Shown: in pieces, positions 3,001 through 6,000 of the stretch | Numbering within the stretch: the stretch's first letter is position 1 | Layout of the letters: the number at the start of each line of letters is the position of its first letter | Virus record (IMG/VR): IMGVR_UViG_2526164604_000012 | DNA from: a virus | Lineage: Duplodnaviria; Heunggongvirae; Uroviricota; Caudoviricetes | Strand: one strand, 5' to 3' | DNA length: 24,334 bases | Position numbers: made by a program

Positions 3001-6000
3001 GGTACTTCTTTTTACTACGGCTTCCCATGGTGGATTGTAGGTGCAGGTGTTGATGATGTTGCCAGAAGTTTATTTTTTGCAGTTATCGTCATTGCTATAT
3101 TTCTTATCGGTTGGGGTATTGGTGTTGTATTCTTTTTCGCAGTGAAAAGAAAACATTCTATGCAAGAGCTAAATGTATTTCGCCTTTATTTTGCTGTGGA
3201 ATTATTGTTTGTGCCGGCAATTATTGAGTTTTCTATATTGAGACAGAAGATTCAGGTACCTCTTTTGCTACTGTCAGCAGCGATTGCGCTGGCGGTTACA
3301 ATTTCGATAAGATCTTATGGGCGATTTTTATCGGTATCATGCTTCTATGATAAGCCATTTATAAAAAAACATTTTTTTGAGATTGTGATGATTGCTTTTG
3401 TGGCATATTTCTGGCTTTTTTCATTTCTGACAGGATATTACAAACCACAGTTTAAGAAAGAATATGAAATGATTAATTATAATGATGGTTGGTATTATGT
3501 TCTTGCTCGTTATGATAATTGTCTGGTTTTGTCTACTTCTTTCAATGCAGGTAGTAAAAGGTTTGTCATTTATCAATCAGCACAAGATAAGAATCTTCAG
3601 GTTGATATTGTAAGGACCAGAATTTAATTGGCTGCATAAATAATATTTTAAGTTGCAAGTTGGCTATTCGTAGGAATAGAACCTTAGGCATGCTGAATGC
3701 GTTTCCTGAACATTGTTTTATAAACTGTGTCTGCTTGCTGTTGTGATCCTGCTTTTAGTGATGGTGATGATGGATTTCACCAGCAGGATAATGTTGGTAC
3801 TGACTGATGGCGCTCTGGTCTGCGGCATTGTGGTATTGCTGTGGCCGATGATGAAAGAACAGAATGAATAATTCTTGACTTTTTTGTTTACTGTTTATTA
3901 AAAAATCAACCGCATGGTGAATCCTCCTTGGAGGGGCTAAATGATCGAGTTTTAAGGGCACGTAGCGAGTTCTGTTTGATCATTGCAGAACTTAGCGGGA
4001 GGCGCCATGCGTACATCACTAATGTTATTTCCTTCTATCATTTTCCTTGTGAGTTCTGGCTGCGCATGGCGCGGCCTTTTTTTTATGACCTGCCACTGGC
4101 AGATGGTCATCCTGTGATTTGATTCCGGTTCCGGCTTTTTAACTCTGTTCCTGTACACGGGAGAAATTCTATGTCGATTAATCGTTATGATATTGGTTAC
4201 AAGAAGTACCACGTATTGTGTTGAGATAGAAAGCATGGTGCCAGAGGTAAATGCAGCAGCATAATAAAAAAGAGCCAGCGCAGAAGAGAACGGGTAAAAG
4301 AGTCTGCGCTGGCGTGGGGATATTCCCCGTGGAGAAATGATATGTAACACACATCGGGAACCTTTCTATATAAACATTATCATTATTGTCAATCATAACA
4401 GTCAGGTATTATGACGTTTATGCATCAGGGCCATCAGGAATTAACTGGTGGCTTTTTATTGTTGTCAGCTTCCGGATAACGGGAGACGGGGTATGTACCA
4501 GATGGAAAAAATAACAACAGGTGTGTCATACACCACGTCAGCGGTGGGGACGGGATACTGGCTACTGCAGTTGCTGGACAAAGTCTCCCCATCCCAGTGG
4601 GTGGCAATAGGCGTATTGGGTAGCTTGGTGTTTGGCTTGCTGACGTATCTGACAAACCTTTATTTCAAGATTAAAGAAGATAAGCGTAAGGCTGCGAGAG
4701 GTGAATAATGTCGCCATCATTACGCAAGGCTGTTGCTGCTGCTATTGGTGGTGGGGCTGCTGCCATAGCGTCTGTGCTCATCACTGGTCCGAGTGGTGAC
4801 GATGGCCTGGAAGGTGTCAGCTACATACCATACGAAGATATCGTTGGCGTATGGACTGTATGTCACGGACACACCGGAAAAGACATCATTCCCGGTAAAA
4901 CGTATACCGAAGCAGAATGCAAAGCCCTCCTGAATAAAGACCTTGCCACGGTCGCCAGACAAATTAACCCGTACATCAAAGTCGATATACCGGAAACAAC
5001 GCGCGGCGCTCTTTACTCGTTCGTTTACAACGTGGGCGCTGGTAATTTCAGAACATCGACGCTTCTTCGCAAAATAAACCAGGGTGATATCAAAGGCGCA
5101 TGTGATCAGCTACGGCGCTGGACATACGCTGGCGGTAAGCAATGGAAAGGGCTGATGACTCGCCGCGAGATTGAGCGTGAAGTCTGTTTGTGGGGGCAAC
5201 AATGAGCAGAGTAACCGCGATTATCTCCGCTCTGGTTATCTGCATCATCGTCTGCCAGTCATGGGCGGTTAATCATTACCGTGATAACGCCATCGCCTAT
5301 AAAGAACAGCGTGATAAAAAAGTCAGTGAGCTGAAGCAGGCGACCGCCACCATTACTGACATGCAGCAGCGCCAGCGTGCTGCTGATGCACTCGATGCTA
5401 AATACACGAAGGAGTTAGCTGATGCGAAAGCTAAAAATGATGCTCTTCGGCGCAAGCTTGATAATGGTGGTCGGGTGTTCGTCAAAGGAAAATGCCCTGT
5501 GCCATCCTCAGACGAAACCTCCAGCGCCTCCGGCATGGGCAATGATGCCACCGTCGAACTCTCTCCAGTTGCTGGACGAAACGTTCTCGGTATCCGGGAC
5601 GGAATTATCCGCGACCAAACAGCACTGAGAACGCTTCAGGAATACATCAGGACGCAATGCCTTCGATGATAGCGATAATTTTACTCATCATCCTTCACAT
5701 CTGGCTCTGTAGACAGGGTGGTGCTCACTTCTGGAGTGAATCATGGTTAAACATCTCATTGCTGATGCTTGATATTGAGCATCTGGCGCGCGGTAAGGGG
5801 CTGCGTTGAGATAAGAGCCAGTCATTAAAAATACCTGGATTTAGCCTCGCATTCGCGGGGCTTTTTTATTGCCATTACAAAAGCCACTCCCTACAGAGTG
5901 GCTTTGATAATGGCTTATACCCTACACGGGATAACTTAACTGATATCCCTTTTAACGGATAAAGGTATTCAAGCCTGACACATCATGCGCTGTATCGTCG

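Follow-up and report, generated by a model that had tools for sequence, protein, structure and literature searches.

The prophage small RNA (sRNA) PasD was described in enteropathogenic Escherichia coli (EPEC) strain E2348/69, where two copies, PasD1 (173 nt) and PasD2 (172 nt), were detected by the ligation and sequencing of interacting RNAs (RIL-seq) with Hfq and were confirmed by Northern blotting; the RIL-seq partners of PasD carry the motif CUCACA, and the homologue of PasD in enterohemorrhagic E. coli (EHEC) is EcOnc13 (Pearl Mizrahi et al. 2021, PMC8550237). EcOnc13 had been identified by Tree et al. 2014 (PMC4104026) as a peak of Hfq cross-linking (Hfq-CRAC) in prophage Sp3 of strain Sakai (901332-901382, + strand). 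PasD is one of the more connected sRNAs of the EPEC accessory genome, with virulence genes among its partners. Here, we report on a stretch of 24,334 nucleotides of a virus of the Caudoviricetes (IMG/VR record IMGVR_UViG_2526164604_000012), the whole of which is hereafter called the window, and we conclude that a short transcription unit at window positions 3875-4084, originally predicted to be the late promoter PR' of this phage with its terminator tR', is very probably the gene of PasD1 (i.e., EcOnc13 of Sakai Sp3), which belongs to the STnc100 family as a divergent member, and that PR' is most likely located farther upstream, at 2684-2712.

Both the STnc100 family and the late promoters of lambdoid phages have been described in some detail. 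PasD was reported to adjoin Q and LpxR in >98% of cases, to be located beside either holin/lysozyme or sialate esterase genes, and to have a structure related to that of STnc100 (Zhu, Shabalina and Storz, 2026 preprint); in Salmonella, RpoD binding has been reported at STnc100 promoter regions. The source of the sRNA StxS, on the other hand, is PR' beside Q (Sy et al. 2020, PMC7547250). At PR' of phage 82, an extended -10-like element is engaged by sigma at an RNA length of 21, and pausing occurs at +25 U (Bird et al. 2016, PMC5001585).

Identity of the short RNA

Window positions 3912-4084 are identical, at 173 of 173 nucleotides, to PasD1 of E2348/69 (NC_011601 1060260-1060432) and differ from PasD2 by three substitutions and a 1-nt deletion; the exact complement of the Northern probe for PasD, CATGCGCAGCCAGAACTCACAAGG, is found at 4045-4068. 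The region shows 100% identity to chromosomes of E. coli O157:H7 and lies in prophage Sp3 in strain Sakai, where each window position equals the position in NC_002695.2 minus 897,314; with this offset, the Hfq peak of EcOnc13 covers a U-rich stretch and the 5' half of the pasD terminator (Table 1). The genomic context, a lambdoid prophage, also fits the published synteny of PasD, with LpxR and Q less than 10 kb away and a holin gene nearby. A short terminated RNA with a start near 3905-3915 had been predicted for this unit, and both expectations agree with PasD1, the mapped 5' end of which corresponds to window position 3912; the RNA is thus already known and has already been named.

The Rfam model STnc100 (RF02076), in a scan ranked by E-value, aligns over its positions 1-206 with window positions 3882-4087 on the + strand (37.7 bits, E 1.8e-6). 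Among the helices of this family, the 5'/3' closing helix, the inner covarying helix, and the terminator are kept in the window RNA, while the CCGGG/CCCGG hairpin is not; the inner helix (3967-3974 / 3986-3993) shows GC-to-AU and AU/UA/GC exchanges, in both directions between GC and AU, among 50 unique family sequences. Family members in viral contigs follow many unrelated genes, including a methylase, a TerB-like gene, Shiga toxin (Stx) genes, and the membrane protein gene found here; if the closest gene is Q, 366-600 nt separate it from the family member. Stx phages carry an STnc100 copy (EcOnc27/sRNA103) approximately 75 nt 3' of stx2B.

Three further observations concern this family and its probes. 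A conserved CTCACAATTCAG motif, which includes the PasD target motif CUCACA, is found approximately 48-60 nt 5' of many STnc100-family genes (viral-contig loci L011-L129), and two family copies lie 230-480 nt apart on some viral contigs (L014, L017, L026, L036, L049, and L083). The tables of Tree et al. 2014 are inconsistent in their labelling of the EcOnc13 probe; the oligonucleotide that carries this label would pair with the promoter region of the Sp15 STnc100 copy 3' of stx1B (locus L006 2501-2535) and has no match in Sp3. We also considered an attenuator, as 4001-4010 (GCGCCATGCG) perfectly complements 4063-4072 in the terminator, with 3911-3917 as a possible competitor; this candidate was rejected because PasD2 breaks the pairing while improving the terminator stem, and because both the 5' helix and the terminator persist in the minimum free energy and centroid folds.

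Probable promoter and terminator of pasD

A TTGACT -35 hexamer had been reported at 3874-3879; the hexamer is present, one base downstream of that location, and matches the -35 consensus at five of six positions. The intrinsic terminator claimed at 4058-4084 was recovered by the terminator scan. Its stem, 4058-4076, reads GGCTGCGC-ATG-GCGCGGCC and forms 8 pairs (7 G-C), with a run of eight T behind it that reaches 4084; on its own, the terminator folds at -17 kcal/mol (z -2.8), and in PasD2 a T-G wobble of the stem is replaced by T-A. The distance from the -35 hexamer to the terminator, given as about 180 nt in the original prediction, measures 178 nt, and the holin start, expected about 410 nt beyond the terminator, is an ATG at 4493, which is 409 nt past 4084.

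The likeliest -10 hexamer, TAAAAA, precedes the mapped PasD1 5' end by 7 nt; the hexamers found at the usual spacings from TTGACT, namely TATTAA (15 nt) and TTAAAA (17 nt), are poor candidates. A TTGAyT/TTGnCT-18-(TGt)TAAAAA architecture is kept in 25 divergent family upstream regions, despite differing genes in front. The best-conserved upstream block across these 25 regions is TTTGTTAAAA / TTATTAAAAA; TTTGTTAAAA ends 6-7 nt ahead of the G of GCAUGGUG, with the TTGnCT hexamer 18 nt farther upstream. Most family members have an extended -10 (TGt-TAAAAA), whereas in the PasD subgroup the TG is missing and the -35, TTGACT, is stronger. Promoter-like sites occur in the region at chance frequency (7 found by the consensus scan versus 8.4 expected); we consider this promoter-terminator unit to be more than chance because of the full-length STnc100 match, the identity to PasD1, and the conserved -35/-10 architecture. 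On this evidence, pasD most likely has a sigma-70 promoter of its own, from which transcription would start at about G3912.

Probable late promoter of the prophage

The Q gene of the window belongs to PF06323 (E 1.1e-91), shows 90.7% DNA identity to Q of phage 82 (X92588), and is named 'Q82-like' in the phage 434 annotation. Its stop codon is overlapped by the promoter motif TTGCAA-17-TATACT. In nine distinct contexts, this motif is found at the end of an 82-type Q and is followed by a AAAACCCGC...GCGGGTTTT terminator homologous to window positions 2746-2767. With A2719 as +1, a pause is predicted at T2743, i.e., at +25; the leader segment 2719-2780, which includes the PR'-proximal terminator, folds at -15.9 kcal/mol (z -2.9). 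PR' of the window prophage is thus most likely a phage-82-type promoter followed by a pause element and a terminator (Table 1), and the counterpart of StxS or 6S in this prophage would be a leader of approximately 54 nt (2719 to about 2772). Our comparison with 82 PR' is based on the verbal description by Bird et al. 2016 and on homologous loci. The original prediction of 3875-4084 as PR' with tR' does not hold up against this cognate unit at 2684-2774, the terminator of which (2748-2772) it had itself named as the alternative contrary to its own reading.

In E2348/69 prophage PP4 (locus L008 2560-2625) and in phage 2B8 (locus L005), the homologue of the window 2740-2775 terminator has lost its fold (-8.7 kcal/mol, z +0.95); in these prophages with a lambda-type Q and a lambda-like PR', the pasD terminator may be the first strong terminator after PR'.

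Table 1. Coordinates of features in the window, with the basis for each
Feature	Position	Strand	Basis
LpxR gene	577-1536	-	gene calls, annotation, domain search
Q antiterminator gene, phage-82 type	2011-2700	+	PF06323; phage 82 Q DNA identity; phage 434 annotation
Likeliest true late promoter PR', TTGCAA-17-TATACT	2684-2712	+	promoter scan; kept with Q82-type genes, 9 contexts
Sigma-70 pause element TGgTATGTT, extended -10-like (+6..+14, assuming A2719 as transcription start)	2724-2732	+	inferred by position
PR'-proximal intrinsic terminator, candidate tR'	2746-2774	+	9-pair stem and T run; homology; phage 434 annotation
Two-gene moron between PR' and pasD	2884-3871	+	gene calls, annotation, PF13064
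-35 hexamer TTGACT, pasD promoter	3875-3880	+	sequence; family conservation
Likeliest -10 hexamer TAAAAA, 18-nt spacer	3899-3904	+	family conservation; inferred position
PasD1 / EcOnc13 small RNA, 173 nt, STnc100 family	3912-4084	+	PasD1 identity; Rfam RF02076
Structured 5' domain, closing helix GCAUGGUG / CGCCAUGC	3912-4010	+	minimum free energy and centroid folds
Hfq cross-linking peak of EcOnc13	4018-4068	+	Tree 2014 Table S2, Sakai chromosome 901332-901382, offset 897,314
Predicted seed UGUGAG	4048-4053	+	Pearl Mizrahi 2021 Fig. S5 / Table S7
Intrinsic terminator of pasD	4058-4084	+	terminator scan; fold; phage 434 annotation
Convergent small RNA EcOnc32, ~112 nt	4264-4368	-	Tree 2014 probe 4320-4354; peak 901574-901662, minus strand
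Holin, class II (phage 21 type), first downstream lysis gene	4493-4708	+	PF04971, E 1.1e-32; annotation

Alternative explanations

A number of points weigh against the assignment of 3875-4084 to pasD and of PR' to the end of Q. The consensus promoter scan called no promoter at 3875-3904, and the -10 is weak, with no T at position 6 and an 18-nt spacer. The STnc100 score lies below the Rfam gathering threshold of 47 bits, which is why a scan in gathering mode returned no STnc100 match, with an ALIL element elsewhere as its sole match. The probe labelled EcOnc13 by Tree et al. 2014 has no match in the window and maps downstream of stx1B in Sp15; because of this, the EcOnc13 Northern signal of '~187 nt' in that study could not be credited to the Sp3 locus and was not used. 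While the text of Pearl Mizrahi et al. 2021 describes Hfq-dependent stability of PasD, the DESeq table of the same paper has no significant drop of PasD in the hfq mutant. With regard to PR', GCC is found at +15-17 in PhiR47_2 and six further contexts (7 of the 9 distinct contexts), where the window has GTA, and the assignment of 2684-2712 derives from features of the sequence only. Finally, the PasD1 5' end was taken from EPEC RNA-seq coverage and is compatible with processing from a longer moron transcript.

This last point leads to an alternative in which PasD1 has no promoter of its own and is cut from the moron transcript (membrane protein-TciB), within its 3' untranslated region, and stabilized by Hfq; that transcript would perhaps originate from a promoter-like site at 2864-2893 or from read-through from PR'. 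PasD starts only 41 nt past the stop codon of TciB and shares the terminator of the moron, and the related prophage sRNAs PasA and StxS arise by processing, which, along with the weak -10 and a 5' end placed by RNA-seq coverage, speaks for this explanation. We nevertheless regard it as unlikely, as the spacing between the conserved -35/-10 architecture and the 5' end is constant among members with unrelated upstream genes, RpoD binding has been reported at STnc100 promoters in Salmonella, and the -35 matches the consensus at 5 of 6 positions. The possibility that the stretch encodes a small protein, either a 'putative membrane protein' of 62-64 aa from the phage 434 annotation (3928-4122) or a 36-aa lipoprotein-like open reading frame (ORF) at 4007-4117, appears scarcely credible. 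Both ORFs are present, the phage 434 annotation includes one of them, the ATG at 4007 is preceded at 4 nt by a GGGAGG Shine-Dalgarno sequence and followed by a signal-peptide-like start, and several STnc100 copies of strain EDL933, copies that are not tied to the window locus, reportedly carry ribosome footprints. However, neither ORF has a Pfam match, the 1-nt deletion in PasD2 stops the 4007 ORF after 14 codons, homologues of the type found in phage Evi carry 13-nt and other indels, the terminator is located inside both ORFs, such that the terminated RNA would have no stop codon, and GGGAGG and ATG belong to helices or loops of the conserved family RNA. Coding by small ORFs across PasD was thus rejected, as the ORFs are not conserved and have no Pfam match.

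The original prediction, in which 3875-4084 is PR' with tR', Q binds at 3880-3930, and the RNA is a late leader similar to 6S or StxS, draws on a -35 that is TTGACT as in lambda PR', on a terminated RNA of about 180 nt with lysis genes about 410 nt downstream, and on the abundance of a short RNA made in uninduced cells. We consider this explanation very unlikely. The TTGACT is located 1175 nt past the Q stop codon with two coding sequences in between, while a complete 82-type unit of PR', pause element, and terminator is present at the end of the 82-type Q itself, and family members are found behind many unrelated morons. The block that consists of the proximal terminator, the moron, and pasD is also found behind a lambda-type Q (PF03589) in PP4 and 2B8, both of which have a lambda-like PR', and in phage Evi, which is more divergent. 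PP4 and 2B8 match the window at every position between the start of the -35 hexamer (3875) and 3930, and upstream of this they differ only at 3857 and 3873. An identical pasD promoter is thus found behind Q genes of both PF06323 and PF03589, whereas Q-binding elements are Q-specific; because the same sequence follows unrelated Q families, 3880-3930 is not a Q-specific binding site. Inspection of 3912-3937 found no TAnnnT pause element, i.e., no -10-like element in +1..+25 of the PasD transcript; the nearest candidate, TAAATG at +27, lacks the final T. The Q-binding and pause elements proposed for 3880-3930 are therefore not supported on either count, and the proposed equivalence to the regulatory RNA of Stx phages points elsewhere as well, since the counterpart of PasD in Stx phages is the STnc100/EcOnc27 copy 3' of stxB.

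Genomic setting and neighboring features

The gene order around pasD is lpxR (on the - strand), ylcG, Q, a membrane protein gene, TciB/DUF3927, pasD, a class II holin gene, and a SAR endolysin gene. The first moron gene encodes the membrane protein (248-252 aa) and ends at 3627, and the second, TciB/DUF3927 (PF13064), is located at 3713-3871. Phage 434 is 97.7% identical to the window over 3630-4195 and 99.9% identical over 1990-2870, and its curated annotation has terminators at the equivalents of window positions 2746-2772 and 4057-4085. At about 360-460 (+), 5' of lpxR and directly after ninI, the annotations of phage 434 and of the NCBI pipeline PGAP indicate an N-terminal remnant of a lambda-type Q gene, which suggests that lpxR-ylcG-Q82-PR' took the place of an earlier lambda-type Q module.

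Several other elements were observed along the late region. A promoter-like site with an extended -10, TTGTTA-18-(TG)TATCAT, is located at 2864-2893 (+), just 5' of the membrane protein moron, and is consistent with independent transcription of the moron. At 4427-4455 (+), shortly before the holin start, a terminator-like hairpin with 11 pairs and a T-rich tail may represent a third barrier in the late operon. At 17816-17932 (+), an ALIL pseudoknot was found (RF01497, 121.5 bits); as this is the element by which IS3-family transposases are frameshifted, it indicates an insertion sequence element within the late region of the prophage.

Opposite to pasD, the convergent sRNA EcOnc32 (Table 1) has a fold z of -6.7, with an 11-bp terminator hairpin and a U run on the minus strand, and a promoter-like CTGACT-18-GATAAT at 4405-4376 on the same strand; its region also gives a weak Esr41-like Rfam match (32 bits versus a gathering threshold of 102). 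The layout of PasD and EcOnc32 agrees with the convergent sRNAs that Tree et al. 2014 (PMC4104026) described downstream of PR', in the interval from a moron to the phage ORF that follows it. A 'hypothetical protein' of 132 aa (ECs_0817, WP_012578864.1) is annotated by PGAP and in Sakai at 3952-4350 (-), antisense to PasD and overlapping EcOnc32; its only Pfam match (Sid-5) is below threshold and at chance level, and neither ECs_0817 nor the 'putative membrane protein' of phage 434 is probably a gene.

Proposed mode of action and implications

With pasD as an sRNA gene, sigma-70 RNA polymerase would start at about G3912 from TTGACT-18-TAAAAA, and the RNA ends at the terminator at 4058-4084. The transcript is predicted to consist of a folded 5' domain of approximately 100 nt, a U-rich single-stranded linker with the seed UGUGAG, and the terminator, a layout that fits the position of the Hfq peak. 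PasD would then act in trans, together with Hfq, by pairing with mRNAs that contain CUCACA. Since pasD is located between PR' and the lysis genes, Q-modified polymerase from PR' would meet the pasD terminator as a second barrier and would have to read through it before it reaches those genes. Because such read-through is needed whether 3875-4084 is an sRNA gene or a late promoter, an assay of this terminator alone would not discriminate between the two.

Tentatively, and as a possibility that we ourselves regard with some doubt, pasD might serve as a switch between lysogeny and lysis inside the late operon, with its terminator as a second gate that is overridden by Q. In the lysogen, termination at this site would release a trans-acting sRNA; after induction, read-through from PR' by Q-modified polymerase would occlude the pasD promoter and bury PasD in the late mRNA. 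In relatives with a lambda-type Q, the pasD terminator would be the first effective gate, because the PR'-proximal terminator there no longer folds. The PasD and STnc100 literature that we examined contained no description of such coupling between Q and pasD.

For annotation purposes, the region should be labelled pasD (EcOnc13, an STnc100-like sRNA), and the late promoter should be moved to 2684-2712. It is useful, though not new, to know that Sp3 of O157 bears the exact PasD1 allele.

Comparison with known systems

PasD resembles lambda 6S and StxS in that it is a short, constitutive, terminator-ended, Hfq-bound RNA of the late region; in those systems, the terminator is overridden by Q for expression of the lysis genes, and the layout suggests the same for PasD. 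Unlike these RNAs, PasD does not adjoin Q, lacks a pause element, and is not linked to a Q type. It is the segment at 2684-2774 that resembles phage 82 PR', with which it shares the position at the end of Q, the +6..+14 element, U at +25, and a short terminated leader; by contrast, phage 82 PR' has the discriminator GCC at +15-17, where the window has GTA, and the terminator of the window starts at +28, approximately 20 nt nearer than in other 82-type units.

With STnc100, PasD has in common the 5' closing helix (GCAUGGUG/CACCAUGC), the inner helix, the terminator, an end-to-end alignment to the model, and the promoter architecture, as well as the position after a moron and before nanS-p or lysis genes. 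PasD differs from STnc100 by a disrupted CCGGGAGGCACCCGG hairpin, a shortened first hairpin, and an unrelated 3' seed region; in addition, the TG of the extended -10 has been lost while the -35 is stronger. PasD1 of E2348/69 follows a lambda-type Q, whereas the window prophage has an 82-type Q, like PP2, the carrier of PasD2; in all other respects compared, PasD1 of E2348/69 and the window RNA agree, with the same 173-nt sequence, seed, terminator, and flanks (DUF3927 on the 5' side, holin on the 3' side, and Q and LpxR nearby).

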